Below the pieces are notes generated by a model. The model ran no database searches. It saw only the letters and a program-made list of their open reading frames with translations, and had not been told where the DNA came from. Shown piece after piece: positions 13,203 to 60,131 of a stretch of 64,000 bases of DNA. Source of the stretch: Marsupella aquatica (lineage: Eukaryota > Plantae > Marchantiophyta); assembly GCA_973895155.1 (NCBI GenBank), contig OZ316898.1, positions 4,823,079 through 4,887,078 on the forward strand, given 5' to 3'. Position 1 is the stretch's first letter; each line of letters opens with the position of its first letter. Position numbers and translations under genes: made by a program.

Positions 13203-14072
13203 TGATTTTTATTCATACGCAATGTTTGGACTGGATCTCATCTTACAGGAGACGACTATCTGAGGTTCTAGCAGTTCCTAGTCCGTCAGAAATTTATTAC
13301 TGGACCAGTACTGACTCATGTCAAGATGTCCAAGTTCCTGATTGCAGAGGTTTTGTCGAAGTCAAAACACTAGAGTCTGTTGGGGGGCCATTTGCTGTAA
13401 GATCATCAAGCATTTTTCTGGCTAGTCAGTCATTCCCTTACAAGTGTTTTGCCCTCTACCTTGAATATATTCCAACGGGAAGTTTGAGAGTCTGAAGTTG
13501 GTGCTACATTCACTAACTTAGCACACCAGAGTCTGCCGTTAGGGGTGCATGGGCTGACTAGTCACCTTCTCAAATCCCTTGGACAGATTCCCGCCTACTC
13601 CGAATGTTTTCAAGGGGATCAATGAAAATTGCTTTAATCTCCCTTCTTCGCCTCCTGTGTTCACATTCTTGATTTGATGTGTAATTGATGGTATTTGATG
13701 TCCAATTAAGTACTCTCTTTCACAGAAAAACAAGTTAAAGAATTCCTTTAATCGAAGTCAGCGCGCTTAGCAAATGAGAGTGCTCTCGACCAAAAAGCAC
13801 TATATTGAAAAGCACTAGGCATCGATAACAGATAGAAAACTTGATAATGTGCGTCAATTTTATTGTTGTCAATAAAATTTAGGTTGGTGGATGTGATTGT
13901 TAAGAGGATTCCAGCACTTCTATATATGCCTAATCACTCCCTCTGTTTGCCTCTACTATGGGTGTAATTCATGCACACAACCTTCAAACCAGGCATACCA
14001 TTTGTATTGGACAGATAATCTATAATCTATTCCAAATGACAATTGGTTTGAGCTCATGTTCAACATAGGCGG

Positions 14073-14360
14073 ACCCATTTGTGGTGGACTCATGATCTGC
14101 AATCTTTTCCAAATGAGGACTTATTTGAGTTCATTTACAAGCTGCAAGAAACTAACAAATAAGAGTACACATCTGGTAGAAGATACTAACAAATAAGGGT
14201 ACACATCAACCTATGCGTACCCATTTGTGGTGGACTCATAATCTATAATCTCTTCCAAAAGAGAATTATATGAGTTCATTTACAAGCTGCAAGCAACTAA
14301 CAAATGATGGTACACATCTAGTGTGGTACACACCTAGTGTAAGGAACTAACAAATAAGGT
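14073..14360. repeat. Tandem duplication, ~146 bp x2
   Basis: acccatttgtggtggactcat...gagttcatttacaagctgcaag.aactaacaaat at 14073 and 14219. Confidence 0.85.
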
Positions 14361-16315
14361 TACACATGTAATGTAATTAAATCTGCGAGTGGGACAGAGA
14401 TGTATTCTAAGGGGGCAAGTCTTTGCAAAGACACTAGCACCCATGGTGAAAGATTGAAGGTAAATGGCTCAAACTTGAGCATGCTATAATCCCCTGTCAA
14501 ATATGTGTGATCAAAACAGATAGCATGGGTCCAATGGGTGTTTGCCCCTTGAATTTCTCTTACATGGGCCCCTGTTGCTGGCAAAACAATTGAAATGAAA
14601 TGGAATGTCGTGGTAAAGGTACCCTAGCAGGTCCAAAGATATTATTAGTCTAGGATTAGAATCCTATGACTAATTGTTTGATAGGGCTTGTTTACGGAGT
14701 TGTCCTTATGCAGTTTGATTTTGTACTGTTCCTGATCTGGATGTGGATAAAATCAGCCCATTAAAAACTGTCAAGTAATCATGCCTTGTCTCCAAATTAC
14801 ATCAAATCTTCTTTTCATGTTTTGCATGGGCAATAAACCCGTGTTCCCGAAAAAGCAATACGAAAAGGGGCATTGTAGCAAAAGAAAAAATCTTCAGGTC
14901 AAAGTACTATTTGACTCTATGGTTGAGATTGTCCAGATTATTTTACGATTTATGGTCGAGAAAGCAGGATAACTTTTTGTATACCCTTTCCTCGGTGAAA
15001 TCAAAAGTGGTCCGGTATTACTCCCTTTGCACGACAATCAAGCAAGGTTTTCTTGTCTACTGGGATAACCCTACTCGTGGTGCCTTGTAGGGTAGAAGTT
15101 TTAATCCAACAAGAACATTACACCTGTGCTTGGAAGTCCCTTTTACTATCCTATCACCCAAACTCGTTGACATTACCAACCTGTCGCCCAAAACCTATTT
15201 AATTGTCAGGTTGGCCCCCCATCTTGTGCATGGATCGGGTTAACTAGATTCTACTAACCCCAGATGGAAATAAATTTGGTGGCGGACGCATGGAAGCTCC
15301 CAATTCACCTTTGCTAACCCCATCCAGCCTTGCATTCACCCTGGACCATATATGCCATCCAAAATTCAGGGAGGTATCAACTGTTGTGTATGAGCAAAAC
15401 CATTGTGTTTTGGCCGTCCCCATTTCCCCCACTTTTACAGTTGGAGTGGACTAGCTTGGACAATTCATGAGTCTAAATACATGAGCCCCCAGACTAATTA
15501 TGCATATCTCGGGGTAGTCCAATCTGGTTAAGCCAACTGGCAGAGCCTGATAATTAAATTAATTTGGGGGCAAGTTAATAATTTGAGTAGTTTGGGAGAC
15601 CTTAAATTAAGAAAGGGTTTTGAAAAGAAAAGGTCTACTGCAGCAAAGACAAGAATGAAGATTGAGAGTTTAGGGTTTAGGATATGTAGTTATAGAAATT
15701 CACCAGTGGGGAAGAGATGAATATCTAGGTGAATACACTGTATCTACATCACATGTATTGAATACAAAACGAATCACAAATACAGTGCGTCACACTTAGT
15801 TGCTACTCCCTAAGGACATTAGGCCAAGTATAAACATACAGTGCTGATACTTACTCCTCTTAGTTGATAAGTACTTATGAATGAGATGTAATTATTTTTA
15901 TGATTAAGGCATCTATTTTGAGTATAATGGTAGGAGATGAACTTCCACCAAAATTTATTTATCAGTGAGAGAGAGGAAAGAAGTACAAAGAGGACAAACA
16001 CCTAACAAGTAAAAAGAAAAGCAAGTGCAATAAAAGAAAAGCAAGTGCAATAAGTGAAAAGTTTCAAACACTACATCAATGCAAACTCAATTACTAGTGT
16101 ACACATTGGAAAATGTGACAAGAATTAATGGTTCACATCCATTGTATTAAACTAAATTGCAAGTAGGACAATAATGTACTCTAGTGGGCGCAGAGGCACA
16201 ATAGTGCTCACTATGAGGGATCCACACAGTGTATGAGGGAGATATTTATAATTGCAAACCCCTCTTTTGTTGTTTATTTTCCTAAAGGTTAGGCTTAAAA
16301 AAGAAAAAAGAACTA

Positions 16316-31300: not shown

Positions 31301-31732
31301 CGGCTCTCAGGGGTTCTTGTCTGCTTCAAGTGCAGCTTGAGGAGTTAAGTACACCCTAATCTGAAACAAACTACATTCCACAATTACAAACAATGCAGGT
31401 AACCACACCATTCTGGTAGCTAAGGTGTCTACCCTTGTTAGATGAATGATATGAGGATGTGATTGCTGCAGCAGAGTATTTGCACCCCAGCACTTGAGTC
31501 CATTAGAAATTAACTGGTCTTGCCCAGGGGACATTTCACTTGAGGACCCATTTTGCCATTAAATCCACTAATCAGAGTACCTAAAAGTTTAAACCGCAGC
31601 CTCATATTGAAATGAAGATCTCCAAGTTCACACAAGTAAGTTGAGCTGTCTATGTGTTTCCAATTCTTTGGATTTCCAATTTGATATAGATTATTGAATC
31701 ATGATCTCCATATTCTAGTTGGTCATTGATTG

Positions 31733-31908
31733 TGTCGTGACATATAGTATTGTAGCCATAGTGTATCAAAAACATACAAGTCACCGGCAAGGCATATGTG
31801 CAAGCTGCTAGCAACCAACATGCATAGAAAAAGTCCAATCACATTCACAAGTGCCAAGAAAAAGCAAATGAAGTGGTATGTACGTAGTGGAGATGTAAAC
31901 CTCTGTAT
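31733..31908 (-). repeat. Split direct repeat unit A (176 bp), 3' terminal copy
   Basis: Direct repeat of 32270-32445 (offset 537). Ends the element in ...CACGACA. Confidence 0.97.
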
Positions 31909-32267
31909 ATAAAAGGCGTAAGAGAAACAATTGTACTGAAATCAAATCGAAAACCGGCAGGATGCCAAGATCGGCCGGGAGCATCTAACGAATCACTGTG
32001 TGAATCCCGTGTACGGAACCGACGAGCACTGTCTGAGCTCTGTCAACAGCGATTCAAGAAGAACTGAAAAATCCACAAAGAAAGACATGCCCTAAGCAAG
32101 CAAAGTCCTGGCGTCACACTAACAAGCACATTTGCTTCAAGAACGGCCCAGACTTGCTACAAGAACATGTCGCTAACTCAGGTAGTACACTAGCCCTAAC
32201 TACATACCTAGCGGGCAGACGAGGGACATGTCGATGTGCATAAGAGGCACTGTCCCTCGGCATGACA
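31909..32267 (-). repeat. Split direct repeat unit B (359 bp), second copy
   Basis: Direct repeat of 41149-41507 (offset 9240). Confidence 0.97.
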
Positions 32268-32269
32268 GC

Positions 32270-32445
32270 TGTCGTGACATATAGTATCGTAGCCATAGTG
32301 TATCAAAAACATACAAGTCACCGGCAAGGCATATGTGCAAGCTGCTAGCAACCAACATGCATAGAAAAAGTCCAATCACATTCACAAGTGCCAAGAAAAA
32401 GCAAATGAAGTGGTATGTACGTAGTGGAGGTGTAAACCTCTGTAT
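32270..32445 (-). repeat. Split direct repeat unit A (176 bp), inner copy
   Basis: Matches 31733-31908 with 2 substitutions. Separated from B by the dinucleotide GC (32268-32269). Confidence 0.97.
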
Positions 32446-32452
32446 CCCCCCC
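32446..32452 (-). promoter_or_regulatory. Polypurine tract (G7) for plus-strand priming
   Basis: GGGGGGG on the minus strand immediately abutting the inner A repeat, ~30 nt after the polyprotein stop. Confidence 0.7.
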
Positions 32453-32494
32453 AGACCACAGCCAAAAGGAGGGCTGAAGAAAATTCAGGTAGCA

Positions 32495-32645
32495 CGTGGA
32501 GCACAAGAAGGGCAAAACCATAACCCTTGTGGCACCTGGGTAAGTTCAGGCCGAAGGCAGAAACGATGGTACCCTCCATTGCAATTGTCACACAACAGCA
32601 TCTGGTCAGCATCATCAATTCGCAAACACACCTTGCAAGGGTAGT
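32495..32645 (-). other. PHD finger at the C-terminus of integrase
   Basis: DYPCKVCLRIDDADQMLLCDNCNGGYHRFCLRPELTQVPQGLWFCPSC is a C4HC3 finger with the hallmark W before the last Cys pair. It is in frame with integrase across the TAG at 32887. Confidence 0.95.
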
Positions 32646-32886
32646 CCACAGGTGGAATCCAAGTAGAAGTCACAATGGTGGGATCTAGGTTAGGCAGATG
32701 ACAAGGGGCGCAGTTCTTGGCATTGTCAGCAATTGTGCGCCCATCTGCCCCTTGTAACTCTAGCACTCCAGACGGTTGAATAGCTTTAACCCTGAGAATA
32801 GTACGACTGGTAGAGGTGTCCAGGGTGTCGTTAGCTTGCCGCTGCAAGTACACAAAATCTCCCACATCAAACTTCCTGACCTTGGG

Positions 32887-33825
32887 CTAAAAAGTGCCAC
32901 CTCGTGTGTGTGCATAACGCAGTGTGTCCCTGTGCTGTGCAATGGTCAAATTCTCCATGGCCATGGGCATAACCCTCCTGAATAGGGCAGCCCTCTCAGA
33001 GATCACATCAGACCAAGTCACAGCTGAATCCAAGTCCACCACCTGAAGCATGTGAGCAGCAATAGCAGAAGGTGGAACTGGGTGACGACCAAACAACAAG
33101 AAGTAGGGAGAAAAGTTAAATAGTGATGCATGTCTGGACATCCTATACCCCATGGCAATGTAGGGTAAGGCCAGGTCCCAATCCTCCTTGTTTTTGGTGA
33201 GGCACATCTTCCGGAGACCCTTCTTGCATGTCTGAACCATGCGCTCTGCCAAGCCATCTGCTTGTGGGTGATCTCGTGATGTCCGGCGATGATCAATGAG
33301 GGCCTGATCAAGCAGCTCCTGGAACTCTCCTCTAAACTCTGAGCCCTGGTCAGTGAGACATTCTGCACAAGCTCCAAAGCGGCTGAGAACTTGTTGCAGG
33401 AATGCCTGGCTGGTGCTACGGGAGGTCTTATCCGGCAATGCCACAAGTTCTATCCACTTGGAGAAATGCTCTATCATGATCATGATGTAGAGATTACCCC
33501 GAGATGTGAGGGGTAATTCTCCAGCCAAATCACATGACCAGCGATAAAACATGCCCTGAATAGGGAGTGGATGAAGTGTGGGTTGCCGAGATGTGAAAGA
33601 AGTCCTCACCCTATCACACTGTTCACACCGGGCAATAACATCTCGAACCTGGCCATGCATGCCTCTCCAATGATAATGAGGGACCAAGAGGCTGTAAGTC
33701 CTCTTAACGCCAAAATGACCAAGCTCAGAATGTACCTTACGGATAAGGCCAACCCTCTCATGAATGGGTGGAACCACCACTTCCCTGTCTGGCAAGCAGC
33801 GCACAAGATGATCTCCCTTCCACAA
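32887..33825 (-). other. DDE integrase with HHCC zinc-binding N-domain
   Basis: HSELGHFG...CEQC; WSCDLAG (D), LTDQGSEF (D), DGLAERMVQT (E); SPYFLLFGR (GPY/F-like). Confidence 0.95.
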
Positions 33826-33989
33826 GTAGCGCTTGGACCTTTGCTGAATTCAGTCTCTCTGGGCAGCAGTAACATGTGTGGGGTACTCCCCATGCTGCAG
33901 AAATCTCAGAGTGTCGTTGTCCTCCCATATGTCCACCACAGGTTGGTCAACAACATAGCATGGCAGCAAAGCAAGATAAGTCGATGCAT

Positions 33990-35463
33990 GAAATGTAGGC
34001 AGGATGGAAACCTGGTCAAAATCTTGCCGTGCATCTGAGGAATCATCAGAGGTAATCAAAGGGCTGCGGGACATAGTGTCAGCATTCTGATGTGTCACAC
34101 TAGGCCTATGAATTACCTCAAAATCATACTCCTGGAGTATGAGCGCCCAACGAGCAAGCTTGCCAGTAAGCTTGTCGTTGGTCATCAACCACTTCAAGGG
34201 CTGGTGGTCGGTGTAGAGAACAAACCTGGTCCCATAGAGGTAGGGCCTGTAATGTATGACAGCCCACACAACAGCAAGGCATTCACCCTCATAAGAAGAA
34301 TAATGACTCTTTGCCTGATTGTTGCTCCTGGATGCAAGGGCAATGACGTACTCTTTACCTTCCTCATCATGCTGGCCCAGAATGGCACCAATCCCAAGGG
34401 CACTCCAATCTCTGTGTAGCACACAGACCTTGCTGAAATCAGGTCTTCTCAGCACCGGGTATTCTGAGAGCTTCTCCTTCAAAGTGACAAATGCTGCCTC
34501 AGCATCTGTACTCCATGTCCAAGTCACATTCTTTTTCAACAAAGCATACAATGGGTGTGCAATGGTACTGAAATCTTTGATGTAGATCCGGTAGTAATTG
34601 CACAACCCAATAAAACTCCTCAAAGTGTGAACATCGGTAGGAATGGGCATTTCCAAGATGGATACCACCTTGGCCCAGTGAGCCATGGTTCCATTTGGAA
34701 GAATGCGATGCCCAAGATATACTACTGATCTGACAGCAAATTCACACTTCTTGGGGTGTATCTTTAGGTTCACCTTCTTAAGCCTCATGAATAGCTCCTC
34801 AAGGTCAAGTAGATGCTGGTCAAATCCTTTGCTATGGACCAACACATCATCAATGTAGCATTTCAGAAACTCAGCACCTTGAAGAACCTGATCCATGACT
34901 CTTTGAAAGAATATGGGCGCATTCTTCAAGCCAAATGGCATCACCAACCACTCCCATAGTTGGTTACTACCATGGAAAGCTGTTTTCTTGCGGTCCTTTG
35001 CAAGCAGCAAAATCTGGTTAAAGCCTTGCCTTAGATCCACAAGAGTGAAGATGTATGAGTCTCCAATGCTGTCAAATAGCTCCTCTGGCCGTGGCATGGG
35101 GTACCTGTCCTGGGGTGTGACCAGGTTCAGTGGCCTGTAGTCCTCACACATGCGCTTCTCTGTCCACAATCCACTGGAATCCTTCTTTGCTGGCATCACT
35201 GTAGCTGCTGCAAAATCTGATGTAGATGGCTGAATAAGACCAGCTTCATAGAGCTCTTGGCATCTCTCATCCACCAGCTGCCACTCATGCTTACTCAAAC
35301 GGTGTCTCCGCCTGAAGATAGGTGTTTCATCAGCCAACTCAATGGAGAACTGCATAGTCTTGCACTTACCCAAGTCCTTCATAGAGAAAGCAAACACATT
35401 CTCATGCTTGAGGAGCAAATTCAGCAGTTGGTCCTTCTGTCTTTTACTCAGGTGGTTGCCCAT
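33990..35463 (-). other. Reverse transcriptase and RNase H domains
   Basis: RT: KRMCEDYRPLN, DLRQGFNQI, VMPFGLKNAP, CYIDDVLVHS, YLGH. RNase H: DWSALGIGAIL, YSSYEGECLAV, YTDHQPL, HQNADTMSR. Confidence 0.96.
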
Positions 35464-35819
35464 GATGAATGTGTAGTTGGCACACTAGGAATAGGACCTG
35501 ATGTACTCGTGCTTGAAGAGCCAGAAGTGCCAGCCTCTCCACTGTCCAAGCTGCTAGCATGCTGCTGATAAGGTGATGAGGCCTCTCCAAGGCCTGCTGT
35601 ATCTGTTGCTCTGGTCTGATCCACACCATGAAACTCAGAAATAATGTCAGCCACATTACAAGGGACCTCCTCCCCCCCAACACTTGGACTGAAGTGGTGA
35701 GTGTTGGACAGAGGTAAGTGCACCTGGTCTGGATGCCATGTAGCAGCACCATGGAGTGGTAGGGCTGGCACTCCTGATGCTGGATGAATGTACATCTGAA
35801 AAAGGATGCAAGTGACCAG

Positions 35820-36740
35820 AAGCCAAGTGAGAGCATTAAGATCCATTACCTTGCCAAGTAAAGCAATCCTGGCCAGCCTGGTGATTTTGGTGTGACCTGT
35901 AGTACCGGGTTGGAAGCCCATAGCCCGTTCTCTCTCCTCAGGACTAGGTTCATCCCATGTACCGGTAGAATGTCGATAAACCAGGCCAGGACCATCACCC
36001 TGAAAAGCATGTGCACCTAGAAAGGACACAAAAGTAGGCCAAGCAGCACGGGGCTGTCCAATGGTATTAGCTGGATACCAAGGTGCTGGCTCTTGCCGTG
36101 TAACCGGTTGGCAAGAACTGTCAGGATCCAAAATCTGGTCCACTGTGAGGTTAGTGTCTCTGGATGTGTGGTGAAGAGCTAACTCCAACAAGGAAGGTGG
36201 TGCAAGGTTAGTCCAAAAGTTACGAAGACGATGTGCATAAGAACCACAGTGCACTGCATCAATGAGAAGGGGTGGTCCCAAGTAGTGCTGGACCACATTG
36301 AAATCCTCTTTGACCTGGAGATGGAGTATTCTCAATGATATAACCAACAGCAGGATAAAGGAATTGAGCCCAGGTGAGAATCTGAACCAATGCTGTGAAA
36401 AGGCCAGAACGAGAATCATGCAGTCTAGCACCGTGACCAGCAGCTGAAAACCCTTGGCATTCCCAACCAGCTATGATCAAATCAAGGGAGCCAAGAAGGG
36501 TTAAGTGCCGGTGCTGGACAAGCTGGATGTCTGGAGGGAAGAAAGAAAATGCGGACTTCCATGCACTATGTGGAAACTGCTGGGGAAATCGCTCAGAAAA
36601 TTCCAGCAGACGGGATTCAGCCACTTGCCTTGCACTTGGATCAATGTCCACGTAGATGTACTGCTTCACCACCATGCCAGACTGTAGGAGAGCTTCCAGG
36701 CCTGTAGAAATGCCACCAAAAAGCTCAAGCAATGTAAGGC
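35820..36740 (-). other. C5 cytosine DNA methyltransferase domain (DNMT3-like, non-permuted motif order)
   Basis: Motif I LLELFGGISTG, II YIYVDID, IV IIAGWECQGFS (catalytic Cys at 36457-36459), V DSRSGLF, VI YIIENT. After the frameshift: VIII SYAHRLRNFWTNL, IX PEERERAMGF, X ARIALLGKVMD. Confidence 0.9.
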
Positions 36741-37079
36741 CATCTGAAGGAGGAGTCCATTTAACTGGTGCGCTCAAGATTGGGGCTATTGGCTGTCCAT
36801 TGTGCTGCCCAAGGTCTTCAAACTTGCGCAATGCAGCCACCAAAGGTCCATGGGCTGCTTGGAGCCGTTGTACCACCTCTGGTTGATGATCCATGTTGCT
36901 GGAAAGTGCTGCTATACGTGCAGCAGCATGTGCAGCAGCCACCTCATCGTCATCCTCCTCAATCCAATCTTGCAATGGGTGGTTGACATAGGTAGCTGTG
37001 TGCACTGCTTTCAACACATAGTGGTGAGCCATAGGTGTATGGGCACCATGCAAATCAAGTGGAATGTAGCCCAAGTGTG

Positions 37080-37460
37080 AGCCATCCGTATGCCAATCAA
37101 CTCTGTAGTATGCATGCTCATGCCAATTGTCAATGGTAAAACCTGGTGGGAACAAAGCCTCCTGGCCAATGAGCACATCATACGTAGTGGCATTGGTAAC
37201 CAAACATCTGACTGGGAAATGCAATTCCTGATCTGTACCTCCATTAAAAGTGAGAGTGAGTAAAGTAGAACTCTCACCCAGCACATCCTCCACAGTGCCA
37301 CTAGCAGTCTGAATGTGCCACCTGGATTGCTGTAAATGATCAGTCAACAGTCCCATCTTCTTGGCAAACTGAATGCCCAATATCACTGGTTGAGCACCTG
37401 TGTCTAGCATGACCACCTGAGGAGTGTGACCCTCCAACTTGACCACTGAATTCCTGTTGT
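37080..37460 (-). other. Retropepsin aspartic protease domain
   Basis: VMLDTGAQPVILG catalytic motif (D at ~37403), flap IQTASG, and YDVLIG closing motif. Confidence 0.88.
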
Positions 37461-38579
37461 CAACAATGGCAATGGTGGTGGAAACTGAAGTCCTATCACT
37501 AGGCACCACTCTCGGCAAATGATGAGGTACCTTGTGAAGGGAGTTAGTATCCATGGTCTTTCCACTCAACAACATAGCCAGGAAAGATGGAGCAGCATGA
37601 CCAGAATCAAGTGTAGCTCTGGTCACACAATCAGCAGCAATCGGTACTGGGGCAACCAAACCAGTGGAAACATGTAATGGAGAAGAAGAAGGTCCACTAT
37701 GTACATGAGATTGGACCTCCAAAACCGGTGTCACAGGGGCTGATGAAGAATGCAGTGAACCCTCTAGCGCTCTGATGACAGCTCTAGCATCCAGCTGTAA
37801 ATCATGGCAACTGAAAAGTGGAGTTGTAAGAATCCTTTGTGCCATACCGGAGGTGAAATGATCAAGCAGCTCAGGAGAAACAACTCCTTGTGAAATGTTA
37901 GCAGCACCTGGTGGTGGAATGGATGTAGTTGTAGCTCCCTCCCCCCTCGCCAACAAGGTGCGCTCTTCAGCAAGTGTGAGTGGCTGAAAAGATTTGGGCA
38001 GGACAGCCCGAGCTCCCCTAGCTCTAGTCATAGGACCAGCAGCAAGACCATCAACCTGTACAATGCGGCGTGTGGGAGCAATACGGGAGGCAGCACTGGC
38101 CTGCTGGTAAGCAAAATAGGAAGGGCAGAATGAATCTGAAAATTCTGCTGTAAGGCCAGGCTGTGTAGCAGAGGATAGCACACACTCACCCATATGAGCA
38201 TCAAATGGCAAGCCATAGAAAGAGCGGGGTATGGGTGTTGAACTGTCAGTGGTGCCTGGGCCAGGGATGGGTTGCACATGACCAACCGGTTGAGAAGGAC
38301 CAGCAGAGGCAGTTGACTTGCCTTTGATGTTGGCAAGTTGGGCACGTAGGGACTCAACCTCATGAGTCAGAGACTGGAGTTGAGTTGCCTGTGCGTTGTG
38401 AGCCTCCTTCTGAGTTGGTTGCTTCTGTTGCTGCTTGGGCGGTTTGTTGGCACTGGATGCTTTGCCACTGGAAGGAGGAGCAGTTGATGCAGTAGGAGCC
38501 CTCCTAGCTGGTGGGGGAGTGGAAGCAGGAGCAGGAGGAGGGGCCTGCTGTCGTAGCTGCTTCCTCTCTGGGAATTTGG

Positions 38580-39834
38580 CAAAACAAACTGCCTCCAAGT
38601 GACCCACCTTTCCGCAAAAATCACAAGACAGGTCCTCAGCAACAATATCACAGTCATTAGCCTTGTGATTGGGGTTACCACAGTAGTTGCAAGATGGCAG
38701 CATGAAAGCAGCATGGGCTGGCTTGGTCTTGGAACCATACTGTGGCACACGGGAAGGAGTGGTCAGTGTAGGGGCAGCAGCCTGGTACCTGGATCGCGGT
38801 GGACGTGCAATACTGGCCTCATAATGTGCATGGGCCAACTCAAGTTTCTCAGCAGTGTCATAGATATTGAGCAGGGTGTAGCTATCTCCAAACTCTGAGA
38901 ATACTTGCTGCAACACTTGCGAATGGAGAGCTGGTGTCCCCTCCAATGCGCGAAGATAGCGATGAGCAGTTTCCAGATCAGTGATGCTCTGGGTGTCCTC
39001 CTTCAGCTTGAGAAGCCGGCGATACATCATCTTCAATGTTTCATCGCGCTGCCTCACAAAGGTGGCCAACTGCATGATTTTATCAGCACTCTTGATTGGG
39101 AATTCCAATTCAAGAACCTGGAAAAACTCAGCCACTGGATCAGCAAAGGTAGGGGAATCAATGGTCGGAGAAATGCCTGATGTAGCCTGTGCCAAGACAG
39201 TGGGAGTAACTGGCGCAGTGGTGGAAACTAAAGTAGGAGGGGAAGTGGCAGGAGCAGCAGCATGGGCTGCAATGGCATTCTGTAAGGCCAATTGTGAGGC
39301 TGCCGTAATTGCACTGGCATAGGTAGGGTTAGGCAACTGTGTGACAGCAAGCAGCCGTTGAGAGTGCTGCTCATACACATCCAACGCCTCATGGTGCACA
39401 TACCTGGCTAGCTACTTAAATGCAAAAGCATTTGTGAAATTGCTGCCATACTTCAACTCCAATTCATAAACGACAGTGTAGAAAGTGGATTTGAACTCAC
39501 GTAAAGAGACAGTGCCTGGCCGCCCGCTGAAGCGCTCAATGCGGCCAGATGAGTGGCTAGCATCCATGCTGTATGTCGGTGAAGCTGGAACAACCACTGA
39601 TGCAGAAGGGGTAAATGGCAATGAAGTGATAGCAGGCTTTGAAGTAGTGGTGAAGCGACCGCCAAATGTAGCAGAAGGATTGCGTGGTGTGGGTGCTGCT
39701 GCTGCTGTCTGCTGATGTCGTCAAAATTGCCGAGGCTCCAATGAAATTGGCACCAATGGTCGTGGATCACTCCGTAAATGGTACCTGGATGTTGGTGGCG
39801 ATGTGCTACTACCTCCTGGCTCCTCTGCTGACAT
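38580..39834 (-). other. Gag region with two CCHC zinc knuckles
   Basis: CNYCGNPNHKANDC and CDFCGKVGHLEAVC (CX2CX4HX4C). Upstream capsid-like helical region (ERFSG...FVRQRDETLKMMYRRL). Confidence 0.85.
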
Positions 39835-41136
39835 GCTGTGGTGTCCTTGCTGGATCGACGGTCTGATGTGTATGCCGGGCCTCAACCTTATGTAGATGAC
39901 ATGTGGCGGCAGCAAAGAAATTGGGAAAATATGGGAAAATATGGGCCCTATGCAACGGTAGTCGAATACACTGGGCCCCTCTTAAGTGTATACACATTTG
40001 GGCCCCATTGTGGACCCGGAAACTGCAGCCAGACCGGTCGAGTGTGTATACACACTCGTAGCACACGGCCCTATGCAGCGCTAGTCGGACGGCTATGGAA
40101 AAGTCGAGGAGTCACTATGGCCGGCGAGGGAAAGAAACGGGAGGGCACGATGCCCTATGTACATACTGCGGAGCACAAAAGGCGTAAGGAGGAAAAGGCA
40201 AGACGCAGCGTGGCAAAGGCGAAGTAAAGAGATGGCGAAAAGGGCGAAAAGAAAAGCATCGGGCCCCCATAGAGGGCTGCGAACTCCCCCCTCCTCTCGT
40301 GCAATGTAATTTGGGCTCGTGCCCTGGCAGGAGCACTCCCGAGAAGGGAGTCGACTTAACTCCCCTCCCCCTTTAATGCTTCATAGGGCCTCGTGCCCTC
40401 TCCTCTCGCAGTCTCGCTTCAACTCCTCCCCTTCGTTAATGCTGAATGGGGCCTTGTGCCTGGCAGAAGTGTGAGTCCCAAGAGGAGGGAGTCGAATGTA
40501 CTCCCTCTCCTCCTTTTAATGCAGCATAGGGCCTCGTGCCCTCTCCCTGCGCTCCTGCCTTCGCTCCCCCTCCCCCTTCTTTAATGCTGCCTAGGGCCTC
40601 GTGCCCTCTCCTGGTGCTCCTTCCCCTTCCTCTGGCAGTCTGGCTGCTTAGAAATGGGCGAGGCAAGGGCACGATGCCCTATGCACAGCCTGCACACCAA
40701 AGCGGAAGGAGGTCGAGAGAAAGAGAAGAAAACAGGGCCCCCAAAGGCGAAAACGTAAAGAGGAGGCCGGGGTGGAAGCGTGTCGAAATGAGGGCACACG
40801 GCCCTATGCAGGCGTCTCGCTGCAACCGAGGCAAAACTCGCCGGCAGCTGTGGCCGGGAATGCGAAAATGGCCCCAAAAACACAAGCGGCAACAAGCGGC
40901 AACAAGCGGCAGTAACAGTAAGAAGGAGCAAATGGGGTCGCGGATGCAACCAGAAAATGAACTCTGGACCTCCTCGGGAGCATTGATATGTGTATACACT
41001 TAAGTATACACATAACAACATAAACCCATAACTTTCAACTCGTCGCTCCGATGTTTGTCGAAGAAATTGCAATGGCTTCACCAGAAATTATCAAAATCAT
41101 CACGAGCAAGCTTCTTTCCCTCACTGCCAACTCGGG

Positions 41137-41150
41137 AGTTCTTCTTGAAT
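41137..41150 (-). promoter_or_regulatory. Putative self-priming primer-binding site
   Basis: Minus-strand ATTCAAGAAGAACT directly at the inner boundary of the 5' B repeat. It is the perfect complement of AGTTCTTCTTGAAT (41305-41292) inside B. No TGG-type tRNA PBS is adjacent. Confidence 0.7.
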
Positions 41151-41507
41151 AAAAGGCGTAAGAGAAACAATTGTACTGAAATCGAATCGAAAACCGGCAG
41201 GATGCCAAGATTGGCCGGGAGCATCTAACGAATCACTGTGTGAATCCCGTGTACGGAACCGACGAGCACTGTCTGAGCTCTATCAACAGCGATTCAAGAA
41301 GAACTGAAAAACCCACAAAGAAAGACATGCCCTAAGCAAGCAAAGTCCTGGCGTCACACTAACAAGCACATTTGCTTCAAGAATGGCCCAGACTTGCTAC
41401 AAGAACATGTCGCTAACTCAGGTAGTACACTAGCCCTAACTACATACCTAGCGGGTAGGCGAGGGACATGTCGATGTGCATAAGAGGCACTGTCCCTCGG
41501 CATGACA
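41149..41507 (-). repeat. Split direct repeat unit B (359 bp), 5' end of element
   Basis: Matches 31909-32267 with 7 substitutions, all transitions. Confidence 0.97.
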
Positions 41508-43174
41508 ATTGAAAGTTGTGGAGCTTCCCCTTTTATGGGCATAGTAGCTTCAAAGACTCCCCATTGCATAGCATTGAATTGAAGTTTTTCACATGTTCAG
41601 GCACACGTTCCCATTGTCCAATGCTTATGTAGAGTGAGTCCAATCGTAGCCCATTAAGCTCACAATGTCCTAAGCACGGATGATCACTTTCCACCTGAGT
41701 TTTTAACTCACATTGAATGGCCCTTTCCAGTAAGCCAGATTCTGTCATCTTCTCCTTATTAGCCAAATGAGGCCTCCCATAGAGCGGACCAGCTTTTTCA
41801 AAGATGACATGACAGGGTGCAAGTTCTAATTAGCAGCTTCTCGATGTGGACTAACAACACGATAATTCATTACATAAGCCTCATTATGATATCAGAACAT
41901 TACTAGGTACTTGTCAAGCAAGTCCCAAGGTACTTATGAAATAAGTCCCTATATGCATGCAACTTCTGCTTTTGGGGATGATGGAAGAAACTCAGGAGTT
42001 TATTGAGTATAGAGTGTGCACAGAGCCTGAGAACCAGACCAGATATATACTGTGATAAGTAGAAGAAGATATCTTTGAATACATCATTCTATGGGAGAGC
42101 CATGTCCCCAACAAAGCTAGAGGAAAATTGTAGGCAAGAAAAACATGTTGAGGAGTAGCCAATGCAACTTCAGGAGGCCACAGTCAATGCTTAGGAAAAC
42201 AACACAACCAAAGTTTTAAACAAAGTCAATACTCTGGCTGTCTTAGAATGATACAAAATTTACACAAGTGACTTTAAGAAGATGCTTCAAATCACCTACA
42301 GTAGGCTATGTCCAAAAGAAGAGGAGAAAGTAAAGATGGTTCCTTCCTTTCCCTGTATGGCCTGGTCAGTGTTACTTTTGTTACCTCTTTTGGGGCAAAC
42401 CCTATGAGACCATTGCCCGCCTACAACATTTACTGTTAGGTGATTGGGTCAAGCTTCAGGTGGAGTACTACAATTGGGTTGGTGACGATTGCATTGCGGA
42501 CAACTGTTTTCCACGAGGTGCCACAAATACCTCTTGTCCGGCGTCATCACTCTGTCAGAGCCTCATGTTAGGAAAGCTAGTGAGTACTCTAGGGCAGCGC
42601 GCTCTTTGGTTTCCCTCTCACCTGCCTATGCATCTGAAGATATCATTGCAGCCCTCGAAACTCATCATGCCCCGAGGGCAGCTGAGGTTCCAACGGGGTT
42701 CCAGGCTTTGTAAGGAGTGTCTTGCTGGAGGATTAATTAGTTTTCCCTATCTCAGGAAATTTTGACTTCTGTCTTCCTTCTTCTGCCGTGACTTTTAACC
42801 AACGGCATGTATGGGATAGGTCGCAGCATTTGCAGGATTGCTTTCTTCCAAATGACTTAGCATCCTGGGGGGCCTGGATTTTCTCAGATTTTCCAAGTGT
42901 GTGCCCATGTTGTGGGCCATTGCAGGGGGGAGTATCTCTCCTGCAGTTGCTCAGATCTTTAGAGTTAGCCTACTTTTGGCCCTGGCCAAGAAGCCTGTGG
43001 GTGATCAGCCTCTAACTTGCAATTGGGGAGGTTTCATAACGGAGATTTAGTCAATTTTTGCCTTAAAACTTGGTCACAGTTTTCATCTCACTTTTTCTCT
43101 CACCAATATAGTGTGGCCACCCATGAGATTGTGAAACTTTAGTTCCTTTGCGGTTGTGAGGGACTCTTGTGCAT

Positions 43175-47242: not shown

Positions 47243-49977
47243 GATGATGCTGATTTAGGGGCCGTGATTAAGTTGAAAGTAGAAAGAGAAGGCATCACTG
47301 CTGTTAATTAGCAAGTACTAGCGGAGAGATCTGGAAAGAAGTAGGGTTCATGTTCATTTGGGAAAGAAAACGGGAGAGAGGTGTGGTACGATGTAGGGAA
47401 GGAAGCGGAGATCTTCTGTAGAAGGGGTAAGATGCGATGCTGTGAAGACGCTCCCCAAGTTAGCTCAGCAAATTAAGGATCCAGAAATTTTGGAATGGAC
47501 GTTAGGACCCGCGTTAGGAAAGATGGTGCAGCTACCCGTGCGACTATCGTAGGAAGAGGAAGCTGATCTGAGGTTCTGGCAATTTTAAAGGTAACGAATG
47601 ATGGTGTTGCTGAGAATATATGGTGGAGAACTTGAGCCGACTGAGGTAGGTTCATCTCCTAAGTGCGGGCGGGAGTGCGGGAGGGAAAGGAAAGGAGCAC
47701 TATGATCGATCCGGATGTAGGAAGGTCTCAACAACCGAGGATCGGCTGAACTCTTATTTGTCGAGTGCGAAGTAAGAACGATTTCGATCTCGTCGGACCT
47801 CTTTGCCGATTTCGTTCAACCCGTGTGGCTCTGAATTCCGATCTGCTCAGGGAGAAACCCATTGAATTGATTTGGCCTTGGCCTGGTGGACTCCAAAAGA
47901 TTGCGTTGCTGCACAGGAAATGTACATGGAAGGCCCGTGAACTCGGTGGAAGCTGGCATGCCGAAAGGTGCTCGGGCTGTTTATGACCAGGGTTTAACCG
48001 AAGGGTTTTTCCTGCGCATTCGGTTTTGTTGGACAATTTTCCTTTCCAAACTTGAGAGACTTGGATGATCATCCAGCCGACCAACTATTTCTCTGGAGGC
48101 GAACGATGATCTCGAGGTGCGAAAACATTGTTGTGCATCACCATCTGCCTTCACTTGCTCACTCACGTGTCTCTTTCCCATTACCAGTCGTTCATGTGAC
48201 TTGGTTCACGTCTAAACAACGCCCGCGAACATTTAGTCATCACTGACTTGATTTTCCTCATCCATCTCTTTCTGTTACGATGGATCATTGGCTCGATGAG
48301 AGCGGCTTACACGACCTTGATTAGAACTCAGGAGATTTCCTTGCCAGGACTACACGGCACGGCACAGCTGTCATGTTCAAGTCATCAGCTGGCAGTCTTG
48401 ACCACTACAGTACCATTACTACAGGACACTCGCCAGCTCCTTCCACATGCTCAATCCAGTCTGAAATCATCCCAACCATCATCTTGCTGAACCAACCTCC
48501 GCAACTGGTTTTACAAATTTGCGTATGCACTCGTAAACCGTGCACACGTACCCGCCGAGTGCTTCGTGGAGCGGATTGTATGTTTCACAAGAAGCTGTAG
48601 GGTAGAGATACGTGTATGGGATATTGGATTCCATCCCGTTCGCACGTGCGCTGTTGGAATGGCCACTTTGGTACTTGTTCGGAAGAATAGGAACTGCGTT
48701 TCGACGAAGTCCTGTTCAGAGTTCGATCCCACAACTGACAGGTTAATTGCTGGTTCGATCCCACAACTGACAAGTTAATTGCGGACAGAAGACAAAGCGA
48801 CTAGCTACTACTGTGTAGTTGGATGTACATAGCTTACTCCATCAATCACCACTCAGGGAGACCAATATCTGTACAATGAGCTCTGAGCCGCATGGCTTGG
48901 AAAGCTGCAGGTAAGGTTTTATGGCACCTGTGGCGCGCTTTGCTGCCAGATTTACGTCGTCAATTGCCTCAAGCTGACTCTCAAAGTTTCGATCTATAGA
49001 TTTCAGATCGATTCAAGGTAGGCCGATCCCCTCACAACTTCCTATCGTCATTCCTAGCCTGCGCCATCCTGATTAAATGTACGTGATAGCTTCATTAAAG
49101 GGTCCAGAAGCTCACAGTTGGATTTGTCTCTCGAAATCGTGGCCACCGGGGTCGGCACTGACAGGTTTGGAAGTGGTTCAAGTTTGGAAATTATACGAGT
49201 CCATCTATTCTTCTGAACCAGCCTGAATCAGGTCGATCATACCTTCGTCACGGTGTCTGACGACACTAAAACCCTCGTACTGCCGATGACCAACCCCTTT
49301 CTTGCTGAAAAGCTTGCTACGAACTGCAGGATACCTGTAAATTCTATGATCTCAAAGTTCATTGACTTGGGTTCCTGGCAAACTAAGACTGGTCGAGCAT
49401 ACACGTCGCACGGGTCCAGTACTTCAAGTGAAAGTATAGGATTCTTGAACACACCTGTCTAACTCATCAAATGCTTAAGATCCACAAGGATACGAGCGAG
49501 GCCTGTGATAATCTGATGAACATGTACCCGCGCGCATGAGGTACGAAGGTCCCTGCTGGCTTGTTATTCGAATACTGACTGATCGATTGACTGTTCAGTC
49601 GTTCAGTATTGATCCCCGCCAGTTTTACATTCTAAACTGAAGCACATCGTAGAGCAGTACTTTGGTCGCTGAAAACCAGAAAAACCATTCGTAGAAGATG
49701 TAGAATGCCATGAAATCATATATCAGGAGCTTGAAATTGTGAATGATCCTGAGAACTTTGTGAACCGCGTGATCGAGTCTTCCCCATCAGTGATGGATTC
49801 ATGTATTGGACATTGTATGATCTGCAGTTGTCAGCTGTCAAAACCATAGTTCTTGATCAAGAACTCGAGCTACATACGTCACGCTGTTGGCTAGCTATGA
49901 AATGTACGCCTGGATGTATTTTCAAGTTGTCATTGTCTGTCCCGTGAACGCACAGGTTTCATTTGATATCTATTTCG

Positions 49978-52900
49978 ATGACGATTTGCCCCTTCAAGCT
50001 GAGACTTTCGAGCTGTGGCGCAGGCTGGTGTTCGTCGACGACGGTCATGAAGAGCAGCAAGTCGCAGCAGAACTTCACATCGACGGTTTATAATCTGTCA
50101 GACTACCTTGAGAATGAACATGTAGAGGAAGGGGCAGGAGTTGTTCTAAGTTCGAGTGGCAACGCTCGAAAGCAGATCTACTTGGATGGTGACTCAGTGG
50201 CGAAGAGGAAATATGAAGATATGACTTCTTGTGGAATTGAAGACGTTGAAGCTGAGATCCATCATGAACAATCGGGTAAGTTCAGTTACTTTAGAGAACA
50301 TAAGAAGAGAAGGCCGCCCGAAGCTGGCAATCCAATGCAATTTCAAACAATTTCTACCACTCCTGTGCAAGTTGAGGGAGTCCAACGGGAGGTCGACGAG
50401 CTTCAAGTTAGGTTGTCAGAGATTTCACGAAGGTCTTGTTCAGTTTCGGGCGTAGAGGTAACTCCAGATATTTGCGGGGGAGAATCCGACTTGACGGCTG
50501 AAAATCAAATGGCAGAAGAAAGCTCAAGATCGAGCAATAATTATGGGTCTTCGATGTTTGAGAGCGCCGCTGAATCGGTTTCAAAGGGACCAATCACGGA
50601 GTTTCGATCCGTTTCTAGCTTAGGAGTTATGCATAGCTTTATGGAGCGCACACACCATGGAGGGAGGGGAGTCAGTGTGATTACATCTAGCGAAGGACCG
50701 GGCCAGATGAGCAGTTTACTTCTTGGGAATGATGGTCACAATACTACGCTGAACGACGCGAACGACGGTCGGGAAGGCGTGAGCAAATCCGAAACAGCAG
50801 CTAGTTATCAGCTTGGATCAGGATCTTCCGAGGCGCCTTCTTTCGTAAAAAATTATACAGCTCCATCCCAGCTTCGGGGAAGAAGCAATCAAGGGTGGTT
50901 ACAACTAGGTGTTGGTAGTAGTTCGGGGCGGCAAACGCCAGCTACACTAAATGTTTACTCGGAGCTCGCTTCGGGTGAGGAAGGTCAGCCTTCGACATTG
51001 AGACAAGACCTCCATGAAGAGAGATCAATTTTCAAGCGGAGGATTACATCGATCGACTTTCCCGTCGCTGCAGACTGTGAAGCAAATAGTAATTATGTCG
51101 TCCCTGAACACTCGAACGCTTCACCAGGTGAATGGCATTTTACAAGGGTCTCGAATGGCATTCCCCCTAAATTTGAAGTGTGCCCCAGTGATCTCTCAGG
51201 TAACCTGAATCCAGCTACGCTTCGGAGTATACCCATTTCTAGTGTGATGAGGAATTTGGACGCTGCCTCGGAAGCGGGAGAAGCTGTAGAACAATCGGAT
51301 TTGTGTATTGGTCGGACGCTTGTCCAAAGAGGCACAGCAAGGCAGGAGCTCGTTTTGGCCCCTCTCAATTGCACAGGGACTGCGGAATGGGAGAACGAAG
51401 GACAGGTGGTGAGCATAGATAAAGCGTTTGAGCTGCGCAGAGATCAAGAAGGCTTTCAAGCTGGCAGGTTTCCTGATCCTAGAGGTGACCGCTTCGGCAG
51501 TGCTTGCCCGCGAGGTCCGGAAATTCACAACGGAGCACGTATCTCGCTATCGACACCAATTACGGGCGTTAATCTTAGATCAGCACCAGCTGCCGCGGCT
51601 GCAGGGCCATCAATGGGCTATGACACTTTCCAATATCACAGAGATAATCCACCTAGCTCTCTCTCCGATTTGCAGCAGAGAAGAGAAGATCCACGTCATG
51701 GCCATCTAGGATTTTCGTGGCTACCTCCACCCGCTGCCGACTCGGCCCCTAAGCTAATACCAACGGCAAACAACTTTCAAGGGTGGATCTCTTCTGAAAT
51801 ACCCTCAACTACGAAATTGACTGCAGCATTGAGCCCCAGTAATGCACGAATGGACAATCCACCCAATCAACAAGCGACGAGAGGTTTGGATGAATGGGGA
51901 ACTTTGTTCAAAGAAGTTGGTCCCAAAATGCTGATTCAATCTTGTCGTGACCTAAGTTCAGAAGGCTCCCCAGCCTTAGTTCAGTCTGCACGTCACGAGA
52001 CGAGTGTCGGATCACAAGAGAATTTGGTGCCTTTCAAACGGGCTATCGAAAACATTCAGAAAGGGCCTCAATGGCCGATTCCGCGAGAAGCCATGAACTC
52101 GATCGCATCTTGGTGCGTGAATGGAAATCTCCAAGGCGTCAGAGGTGAGTCTAGTTTTGAAGGTGACCCTTTGAATCTGAGCGAGAAGCCACCTCAGAGG
52201 CAAAGCTGGCAACCAGCCGGCGGACAGACGTGGCTGCATCATGAAAATGTGACCGCTCTTCACAGACCGGTTCCTGAAACTGCAAGAAAACCCAGGTCGC
52301 AAATGCTTCCACCTGGGTCCATGGGGACGAGTCATGCGGGACTTTGGTTCGTTCTCCAATCTGCAGAGAATCAGTTAAGATCAATTCAACCCTCAGTCTG
52401 CTCTTCAGGGATCGATGTGCTTACTTAATTCTAAACTCACAATTTCTCGTGTCAGTGCGTTGTTTGACATGCATGTGTTTGTTGGGACCATCATGAATTT
52501 TTCGTTCCAACAGTTACAAAACTGTACACGAATGTTCGGTTCTAGCTGCAGCGGTCAAATTGCTGACAACCTTGACCTTTCGCGGTCCTGTTGACAGCCA
52601 TCATTCTTATGCGATATGCGTCAGAATGCAAATTTCGTAAACACGGACGTTTAAGCTACATTCTCATAATGACTCGTAGGAAGTCTTTAGTCATGCAGAA
52701 TGCTGAGTTCCTGTGGACGTATCCGAGCTCAGCTGTCCAGAGTACATGATGGTTAGGCTGATTGGATCTATAGTTTGCAGGCATATTCCAAGTAAGTTAT
52801 GTGGTCCACGATCCATTGCCTTTAGATTCTACTGTTTTCTTGTGCGGATAGATATTGCCTAAAATTTAGTCAACTTACTCGTGACATCTTCCTGCGATCA

Positions 52901-56866: not shown

Positions 56867-58591
56867 CTGTGAAATCAACATATGTGGGCGTCATATTTTC
56901 TCAAATTTGCGAGCCTCATCGTGATAACCCCCGAGAAGTCTAAGTGACAGTAAGTAAGCTTACACACACTGAGAGATCATACAAATGTTCTATACCGTAT
57001 ATATCGATCTGCCAGTTCAACGAGAGCACATGATGATATGTGTTAGAGGTCTAAGGTATACGTCGATCCTTATGACTGCAGAAGCTCCAAGCGGTTCCAG
57101 CTAGCCGGGAGCCAAGTCTTACACATTTGGTACTAGAGTTAAAAGTTCTGAGTGGTATACCTACCAAATGGGAGCAGTACCAAACTCTACCAAATGTGTA
57201 AGACTTGGCATACTGTCTCATGGATCTAGATGTAGATGTAGATGAGAGTTCTTACTACTCTCTGCTCGCGACAATTGATCGATCTGCCAGTTCAGGAAAA
57301 GCAGTAACGTATACGCTCTTTCTATGCATCGATCCATTCAGCTGCTGCGCCTCCATCCGACAACTAATTGAAGCGAACCATTCAGTGGAGTAAAGGCCTA
57401 CAGCGATATATCGAGATGCAGATGACACTGCTGAATGCTTTTCAGAGTATTTTTACTTGATCGATGTAATTGAGAGTACTTCTGCTCTCAGAGTATTTGT
57501 AATTGATCGAATTAGTCGATCAAACGCCCTCGTGCGTATTGTACTATTCATGACTGGTCAGTCAGTAATCGCATCATTAATTAGGAGTAGAAACTGCTCA
57601 GCATGCTAGCTATTAAATTAGACAGTTCTGCAGGTACACCAGTCTTGCTAAGCATGATCGACAAAGTAACCCTTCACTTTCATAATTCGAATCCATTCAG
57701 GATGCATGGTGGAAGGTATGTTACTGTACGTAGGACCTAGATGAAACCTATTTACAGACTTAGCTAACTACATCCGCTAAATGTTTTTCGTTCTAGCAGA
57801 GAAGGATGTAGACTGAGGCCTTCTAATACTTCACAAAACAGTTGTTGCTACGACTTGCTCATCCTTGGTTGACGGAGTGTACGTGAGTAACGCTTTCCAT
57901 TTGACAGTGAGTCGTCGCAAACAGATCGCACTAACTTGCTACTATATATGGTTTTTACATTACTATGTCACCTGATCGAGATATATCCCTGGCCTCTCTC
58001 GTTGGCTAAAATGGTTGTGGATGCTCTCAATCTCAATGTGGCTCAATTTAGTGACTACGGGTTCAATCTCTCCTGTTGAACGTTAACAGGAGATCAACGT
58101 GAGACTGAACTTTGCTTTCCATGACCTTCGGAATTAGGAAGTGTTGTACAGCAGATTGACTGAAATGCATGAAGTTGGAAAGACTGGACTGAGTCAGTAG
58201 CGACTTTTTTCTGGATTAGCAATCGATCTGTACGTCATTGGAGCACTGTCAGTTGTGTACATCGATCTGTCATTTGAGAACTGTCAGTTGTGCATGTAGA
58301 TCTGAGTTTCTTGTCGTTCAAGAAGCTATCTCTTCAGTTGCTTCATTCTCGATCCATGCTTAATCTCTGATATTACTCCCAGGTAGCCTAGTTCATACTT
58401 CCAATCAATACATTCTTCCTGCAGCCAATCATCACCATTTACTCCAAAACTGCTTGTTCGATTTGTATATCTATAGAGGTAAGTTTCTCCGGCAGTGATT
58501 TGCAATTGGCCCACATTACTTCGGATATCGTCGAGCTGGGATCGAAGATACACGGCTGACTAGCTAGGCTGCGCTTGGACGTACCCGTAAA

Positions 58592-58698
58592 TTCATCGTC
58601 TGTCATGACCTCCCTAGCTCCCTTTCCTGGCCTACAGCAGCAAGAAGACACTTACTTAGGACAGGAAGGGAGCTGGGGAGGTTATGACAGACGATGAA
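58592..58698 (+). ncRNA. Long near-perfect hairpin (pre-miRNA candidate or micro-MITE)
   Basis: Arms 58592-58634 and 58657-58698 pair with 2 G-U, 1 bulge and 1 mismatch, around a 22-nt loop. Confidence 0.4.
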
Positions 58699-60131
58699 AT
58701 TAACTAGTCCAAGAACATCTCGCAATTACGACGGATTGAAGCTTCCCGTGAACCTTTCCTCTCAACCTTCATGGTGCTCAATTCCCATCGATTTCTTAAA
58801 AGTTCAATGCTCATCGACCTGGTCCAACTCAAGATATATTCACTGCCTAGAACCTCTTCATCTTGAAATCCGATACAATCCTCAGCAAATTATCTGTTCA
58901 GAACTGTGTACGTGATCAAAAGTCTACGACTATATATTCGAGTGTAGAACTCATCAAGAGAAACCCAAATCACTAAGACCATTGTGGCCAAACTTATGAA
59001 TGTGTTAGACTCTCAACTATATAAATAAAAGAACAAAGGCGCCATGACAGGAGAAGCAGGATCCAAATTAAAGTAAACAAAACCAAATTAATGGAAAGAA
59101 ACAAAGGAAAACAAATCTAATTAAAGGAAAACAAACAAAGGAAAAACAAACGAAATTAAAGGAGAACAAACGAAATTAAAGGAAAACAAAGGAAAAATTA
59201 CGGAAAACCTATGTGCCAAAAAGCCCAAGGAAGAGGCCCTGCCTGACAACGGCCAAAGAAGTAGAACTAGAACTCTTGTTGTAATGGGAGCTAAAGCACA
59301 AAACGAATGGGAGCTAAAGCACAAACGATCAAGGGATGTGAACAAAGAGTGTAGCTGGCTTGTACCCTAATTGATTGATATAGAACGAAATAATGATTCA
59401 GGCACAGGGTGAACCACTGAGCGCTAAACACACTTGTGTGCCCTTGTCTTTCAGTGGTCCAAATTGGACGCTCGTTTGGGATGATGAAGATATAGAAAAG
59501 CAGACAGATTCTGACCTATGGACAGCTCTACCCAGCAACAGGCCAGGTAACAAACTGAGAAGCCTGGTAAAGCTCCAACTGAGAAGGCAAGTACATAGCA
59601 GTGTCACAAAATTCTATTAGAAGAATAGAAGCCCTAGAACCAACCACCTCAACCCAACAAATTGACACTCATCTAACTTTCATGTTTTGTCTTATTCAGA
59701 TTTTGTTTCCCGTATTTAGATTTTAATGTGCCTTAACAAGGTAAATCAATTGTATTAATAAGATTTTGGATTAACTTTTGGACCCCTTGTAATTTTAGTT
59801 AACCTAAAGTATTTTGACTTTATTTTGGCTCCCCTCATAAATGTTTAACTCTTCCTTTTCAATCTCTCCTTAGGGAATTCTATATCTTTCCATGAGAGGG
59901 GGAAATGATTTTAAACAATGTGTACATCTGGCCTACTAAGTTCCCCTCACGTTTCCTTTATAACATTGATGGGTTTTAATTGAATTGATTCTAGTTAAAA
60001 ATTTAATGTTAATTGAATTGATTCTAGTTAACTAGAAGCAAGTGAAAATGTGTACCTTATGTACACCTTAGTACTTTCATGTACTTTCCTGATCATTATG
60101 TGCTTTTCCTGGCATGTATTTTACATTCACC

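Follow-up and report, generated by a model that had tools for sequence, protein, structure and literature searches.

A liverwort Gypsy-type retroelement whose integrated copies begin and end at a spaced junction inside its own repeat block

In LTR retroelements, integrase normally acts on DNA ends whose position is set by the primer sites of reverse transcription, and circular forms of the DNA copy are mostly viewed as dead ends. Among the closest described systems, as far as the accessible parts of the sources cited here describe them, is KnitGypsy-Dnmt3 of Klebsormidium nitens, for which the legend to Fig. 4c of de Mendoza et al. 2018 (PMC5890265) reports DIRS-like repeats together with Gypsy domains. 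PAT, TOC, Kangaroo, Ngaro and VIPER share the order A1-ORFs-B1-A2-B2, in which the two termini meet at an internal junction (PMC4157794), and the Ty3/gypsy elements Tf1, Sushi and Tcn1 are self-priming, their primer-binding site (PBS) being complementary to an upstream stretch of the 5' repeat (PMC4600332, PMC6317226). On a palindromic LTR-LTR junction, foamy virus integrase cleaves both strands behind the CA and creates 5'-AT overhangs (PMC1180852; PMC1905944 is a further source on cleavage of retroviral 2-LTR junctions), and HIV-1 2-LTR circles can feed integration (PMC4372172). In IS3/IS911, IS30, IS21 and IS256, finally, a DDE enzyme cleaves abutted ends that are separated by a short spacer and inserts them with a target duplication (PMC3299598). 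Here, we describe a retroelement in a 64,000-nucleotide stretch of the genome of the liverwort Marsupella aquatica (the window) that carries its two termini back to back within a repeat block, and we compare it with each of these systems.

The element measures 9,775 bp (31733-41507), lies on the minus strand, and is bordered by a 4-bp target-site duplication, ATTG (31729-31732 on the left, 41508-41511 on the right); all other features given below for the element are also on the minus strand, apart from the strandless att junction. Its sense order is B1-gag-PR-DNMT-RT-RH-INT-PHD-A1-GC-B2-A2. Self-comparison resolves repeat A, 176 bp, into two copies of 98.9% identity (A1, 32270-32445, and A2, 31733-31908, with two differences between them), and repeat B, 359 bp, into two copies of 98.1% identity (B1, 41149-41507, and B2, 31909-32267, with seven differences, six of them transitions). 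B1 provides the 5' TG end of the element and A2 its 3' CA end, while A1 directly follows a polypurine tract (PPT) of seven G residues (32446-32452) whose position is the same in relatives. The end of A that faces the junction described below (32270-32305 and 31733-31768) contains two or three short sub-repeats, the number of which differs between A1 and A2 in loci L058, L060 and L061; these are possible candidates for integrase-binding sites.

To place this copy in its family we use relatives from a metagenome scan, namely the best 80 of 424, whose layouts were mapped with A/B profiles; nine loci were removed because their flanks showed them to be an insertion already included, and metagenome contigs may be misassembled at repeats. 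Two of these loci (L054 and L070, 47-49%) yielded no att-like site and no A/B repeats. Viral contigs gave only distant reverse transcriptases (27-37%) and were left out of the analysis.

Between A1 and B2 lies an internal att junction (32261-32276), recognised from the sequence, the contigs and the relatives, that reads CATGACA GC TGTCGTG and has its 2-nt spacer GC at 32268-32269. On its right arm att carries the start of repeat A, the same sequence that forms the left end of the element at 31733, and on its left arm the end of repeat B, the same sequence that forms the right end at 41507. The original prediction that the two termini are abutted with exactly two nucleotides, GC, between them is confirmed by the sequence and by the comparison of repeats A and B, as is its statement that GC is absent from the genomic ends, both of which are bordered by ATTG. 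Its description of the junction as a perfect palindrome holds for the 10-bp core, GACAGCTGTC, and not for the whole 16-mer, which pairs at 7/8 positions; nor is either above chance, the window containing 73 perfect palindromes of 10 bp and 34 16-mers in which no more than one pair fails to match, and for this reason we dropped the palindrome per se as evidence. What does exceed chance is that both arms are identical to the termini of the element, and that, of the whole 537-nt repeat block, blastn matches in relatives are confined to att (query 156-187, in 10 of 80 loci, the best 80 of 424).

The coding content is that of a Ty3/gypsy element, with PR-RT-RH-INT order, a DDE integrase, TG..CA ends and a short target duplication; two full LTRs with integration ends set by PBS and PPT are not found in it, its integration ends lying inside A-GC-B. 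The first reading frame (36259-39411) encodes gag with a weak zinc knuckle, an aspartic protease (PF13975) and the N-terminal half of a C5 cytosine methyltransferase (PF00145, E 2.5e-05). An out-of-frame continuation of pol without a Pfam match (35448-36470) lies between this half and the reverse transcriptase and is likely, judging by its relatives, the rest of the methyltransferase: in P0005 and P0065 the matching region shares one ORF with RT. Reverse transcriptase and RNase H (33850-35484; PF00078, PF17917, PF17919) and the zinc-binding domain and core of the integrase (32887-33849; PF17921, PF00665) each end at a premature stop, and a C-terminal integrase piece with a PHD finger at about 32503-32637 (Pfam PF00628, E 2.6e-12) completes the series at 32485-32886. 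No chromodomain was detected in the element. In total, two stops and two frame changes interrupt the reading frames of this copy. The integrase triad is D107-D167-E202, of which the second D and the E enclose 34 residues where 35 are usual; the same spacing occurs in 41 of 43 related loci (from the best 80 of 424) and in 9/9 matched homologues. All three residues are complete in 21 of these 43 loci, this copy and most relatives being decayed. The methyltransferase pieces (36259-36900 and 35448-36470) match 57-68 of the best 80 of 424 relatives, the second of them 68/80. Among named relatives, RT-RH is nearest to a sequence of Calypogeia fissa (82%), followed by Marchantia, Klebsormidium and Closterium, and Marchantia Mp_2g26090 is a methyltransferase-RT relative. 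A methyltransferase capture of the Klebsormidium type thus appears, from these sequences, to reach the bryophytes.

Across the family, integrated copies end at the CA of both att arms, lose the spacer and make a 4-bp duplication, while the joint between B and A varies. When contigs of four runs were aligned on 31909-33100, diverse flanks were seen to start exactly at 32267 and at 32270 in 4/4 runs, with 5-16 contigs per run and an agreement of 0.40-0.48; the A-to-B joint, too, occurs in 4/4 runs, in some with an extra A or AT. All 28 unique 5' ends from the best 80 of 424 relatives begin with B, and none has A upstream (0/28). At the 3' side, 22 unique loci have the form A-att-B-A and 19 have A alone, and three further loci are single cases (in one A2 is truncated, one runs off its contig and one is inverted; all from the best 80 of 424). 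The 4-bp duplication is exact in 12 of 21 unique two-ended loci (best 80 of 424), has one mismatch in six and is absent in three, with L017 and L023 read by eye; a wrong-partner control over 20 loci gave an exact match in 1/380 pairings and a match within one mismatch in 27/380.

These ends bear directly on the idea that the window holds a one-off rearrangement, a tandem insertion or an assembly artefact, in which the palindrome is simply an LTR end next to an LTR start. Tandem and circle-derived LTR structures do occur, and 10-bp palindromes are as common in the window as noted above, but the layout recurs in 22 unique loci with different flanks (best 80 of 424) and in 4/4 runs, and no locus has two full LTRs or a host flank at the start of A on the PPT side or at the end of B on the PBS side. 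The family-wide layout and ends refute this idea, and we give it next to no credence. A second idea is that a tyrosine recombinase supplied in trans acts on the junction in the manner of PAT, Ngaro and further elements with split direct repeats, of which the order A1-B1-A2-B2 is a hallmark (PMC4157794, as far as its accessible text goes). Against it, no tyrosine recombinase match was found in the eight main and 24 further ORFs of at least 85 aa in the element region, an rve integrase is retained in 73/80 loci (best 80 of 424), and the TG..CA ends, the lost spacer and the variable 4-bp duplications all bear the signature of DDE enzymes; we regard it as very improbable.

The spacer itself is constant in length, at 2 nt in 25/25 unique loci from the best 80 of 424. 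Its letters are GC in 8 of these loci, AC in 7, GT in 7, AT in 2 and TA in 1, so that 24/25 are GC or C-to-T decay products of GC (best 80 of 424); the spacers of L005, L021, L035, L036, L051 and L079 were read from the sequence, as automatic anchoring fell on sub-repeats. Each spacer base is decayed in 9/25 loci (0.36), and CHG sites in the same alignment are decayed at a mean of 0.30 (0.12-0.48). Because the rate falls within this range, all variants except TA are most plausibly GC that has decayed since insertion. In run X1, 359 contigs over 32210-32330 have no listed indel and include a C-to-T variant, at 32269; the site is also crossed without a gap by contigs of X11 and X13, which carry other organism labels, but with fewer than 31 letters on a side, and the single contig of X5 falls outside it. 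The conservation of the spacer, a check set beforehand, therefore came out in favour of the original prediction. GC precedes the 5' TG in L036 and L055, 2/28 loci, which is the chance level.

Since related copies begin and end exactly at att, integrase likely cuts the DNA copy there, and we consider it highly probable that integrase uses att. The further suggestion of the original prediction, that a pre-built integrase substrate is carried inside the LTR, gains support from integrated ends that lie exactly at both CAs; cleavage by integrase would, by analogy with that of foamy virus, leave a 2-nt 5' overhang.

The predicted ends of reverse transcription lie elsewhere. A predicted PBS (41137-41148) directly follows B1 and is complementary to 41294-41305, within a predicted self-primer at the putative RNA 5' end (41292-41305) that forms a 14-nt perfect inverted repeat with 41137-41150. 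An inverted repeat of at least 14 nt was reached by 2/300 shuffles, and the primer helix is present in both the MFE and the centroid structure, the leader RNA as a whole folding like shuffles (z -0.06). In relatives, PBS and self-primer each depart from those of the window at two paired positions with the pairing kept, a case of covariation; the 12-nt PBS is immediately preceded by AT in 27/27 loci, and a purine stands immediately 5' of the start of A in 40/42 loci (both from the best 80 of 424). In the standard scheme, the LTR made by reverse transcription spans PPT to PBS. As the PPT adjoins A and the predicted self-priming site adjoins B, reverse transcription would make an LTR of the form A-GC-B with att in its middle: 537 bp long, with AT..AT ends and an internal TG..CA site. 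The B2/A2 joint of the window copy (31908/31909, ..TTTTAT/ATACAG..) consists of these predicted ends joined blunt. A TATA-like box formed at this joint was considered and dropped, as it is not kept in relatives.

Over 23 unique loci from the best 80 of 424 relatives, the B2/A2 joint is blunt in 7, of the same length with a G in 1, and longer by one base in 4; the remainder have lost one base (3), two (4), three (2), seven (1) or about 147 (1). The +A and +AT forms occur within the window's own family. Because this joint is variable, host end-joining can be inferred, and the joint resembles that of an end-joined 2-LTR circle and looks newly made in each cycle. Its types are unclustered on a tree of 42 loci (7 changes for blunt joints against 6.5 when shuffled; 15 against 14.1 for A-only copies), but the tree is nearly a star, with 2/39 branches supported, and hence shows non-inheritance of joint types weakly. 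Comparison of repeat identity within and between elements is no guide here, given the age of the 13 complete loci (83-93%).

We favour, with moderate confidence, a model in which the cDNA ends are first ligated into a two-LTR circle and integrase then cuts att 3' of each CA. RNA would start inside B near 41305 and prime itself at the site after B1; from the positions of the primers, the linear DNA would be [A-GC-B]-internal-[A-GC-B], with AT..AT ends and without TG..CA. Host end-joining would then fuse these ends, often with bases lost or added, as the variability of the joint suggests, and integrase would open the left att, creating 5'-GC overhangs and a 4-bp staggered insertion. The form found in the genome, B-internal-A-GC-B-A, has TG..CA at its ends and a duplication of 4 bp. 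The att on the right would remain uncut and be transcribed, and so be inherited by the next generation. The exact ends with their 4-bp duplications, the presence of a DDE integrase, the fixed primer sites, the fixed spacer, the variable B2/A2 joint and the precedent of a retroviral integrase that cuts both strands of a CA-bounded palindrome all support this model, which is read throughout from integrated copies. If the two-LTR circle were symmetric, the mirror form B-A-GC-B-internal-A should be equally frequent, yet it is found at 0/28 unique 5' ends (best 80 of 424). In the standard scheme the left LTR is the first to become double-stranded, and our preferred reason why the left att alone would be opened is this earlier completion; a mark placed by the element's own methyltransferase is a speculative second reason.

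The same product, with the same sloppy B2/A2 joint, could arise from linear cDNA if the left att were opened, the CA ends inserted within the integrase complex, and the RT ends joined afterwards by the host, with no free circle. Early completion of a double-stranded left LTR would in that case explain the missing mirror forms as well, and two aberrant copies fit: L004 (13516-13545), where A2 is cut to its last 29 bases, about 147 being lost, with the CA end and the duplication CCAC intact, and L032 (7597-15481), whose distal part is inverted with both att ends apparently outside, one breakpoint falling exactly at the end of B2 and the other linking the internal region to A about 15 nt short of its start. 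Such a route would however leave a chromosome break in need of repair at each insertion, and at most seven bases are lost in 22/23 joints (best 80 of 424). We consider it a possible but distinctly less probable account. A different kind of chemistry at att, by single-strand steps, at the strong-stop stage, by IS3-like figure-of-eight DNA copy-out or by a host nuclease, seems unlikely to us. IS3, IS30, IS21 and IS256 do use abutted ends with a short spacer, the two arms of att differ at one conserved position in the window and in relatives, and the two att copies are used asymmetrically; the fixed PPT and PBS and the fixed, templated spacer point instead to an RNA route, and the spacer of IS circles comes from the host flank (PMC3299598, in its accessible text), whereas here it is constant. 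The circle-first model remains the one we prefer; a point against it is that the 19 unique loci of B-internal-A form (best 80 of 424) can be explained with no circle at all.

These B-internal-A copies carry a duplication in 6/7 two-ended cases (best 80 of 424), and could derive from one-LTR circles, from cutting of both att copies, from recombination between A1 and A2, or from assembly collapse; having no 3' R region, such copies would not be expected to propagate. In L073, A2 contains an insert of about 870 bp (13500-14372) with TG..CA ends and a 5-bp duplication, which is likely a solo LTR of another element.

At its widest, our reading is of a streptophyte-wide Gypsy lineage in which integration ends are uncoupled from RT ends, an obligate end-joined circle is opened at a templated internal att, and a built-in rule, by synthesis timing or by a mark from the element's own methyltransferase, picks the left att as the sole replicative cut; we would put the chances of this whole picture at even. 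With its integration ends separated from its RT ends, the element would need both internal cleavage and host end-joining. Whether circle junctions can act as precursors of integration has long been debated, and the element offers a natural high-copy system for that question. It may also serve as a model for the origin of split-direct-repeat layouts from LTRs when no tyrosine recombinase is involved, and its 16-bp site might allow a DDE integrase to insert DNA in circular form. Elements of this kind would escape or be mis-called by finders of paired LTRs.

Elsewhere in the window, an 826-codon open frame on the plus strand (49948-52428) has no Pfam match and is probably a long host exon; its end carries what we take to be a resemblance to a plant RAWUL-like motif. 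Dispersed repeats at 22841-22939/29473-29571 (a 99-nt inverted pair 6.5 kb apart), 368-419 and 22506-22647/28236-28374 are probably the ends of decayed DNA transposons or MITEs, and a 37-nt inverted repeat (92%) with a 41-nt loop at 58588-58702 forms a MITE-like or miRNA-like hairpin.

The repeat layout of this element is already in print, as one figure-legend line in PMC5890265 that gives no mechanism in the accessible text. Within that same text, we found no description for KnitGypsy-Dnmt3 of an att site, a spacer, a duplication, primer sites or a mechanism, and the words 'circular' and 'target site' do not occur in the main text as accessible. The name 'KnitGypsy' led to that paper alone in a literature search, and a search of titles and abstract openings, outside subscription journals and Repbase Reports, returned no other DDE Gypsy with split or permuted repeats. 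An internal templated att, its 2-nt spacer, its separation from the RT ends and a sloppy second joint were likewise not found in print. KnitGypsy-Dnmt3 and the window element are alike in having a C5 methyltransferase inside Gypsy pol, here as PF00145 between PR and RT, and a DIRS-like arrangement of repeats; RT-RH of the window element matches two K. nitens proteins, which are not shown to be KnitGypsy-Dnmt3, at 50% and 44% identity.

With the PAT/Ngaro group the element has split direct repeats in common; that group, as far as described in the source, encodes a tyrosine recombinase, whereas the window element has an rve integrase and 4-bp duplications. The parallel to IS3/IS911 that was drawn in the original prediction stands for the abutted ends with a short spacer and fails for their origin, as the junction here would be copied from RNA and not made at circle closure: IS3-type elements are DNA transposons whose transposase, in the accessible account, rebuilds the junction in each cycle with a host-derived spacer, while the spacer of the present family is constant across flanks. 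As in Tf1, Sushi and Tcn1, the predicted PBS of the element is complementary to an upstream stretch of the 5' repeat, which here would be the RNA 5' end, but those three are described with two full LTRs and integrate by the ends of these, and the window element differs from them in this and in its PHD finger and methyltransferase. The retroviral 2-LTR junction is a palindrome that is cut on both strands after CA to leave 2-nt 5' overhangs, as we propose here by inference. In retroviruses, according to the accessible sources, that palindrome consists of ligated LTR ends and belongs to a side route. In the window element, att lies inside the LTR, would be copied through RNA and is the sole end seen in integrated copies, and the ligated joint is a separate and imprecise one.
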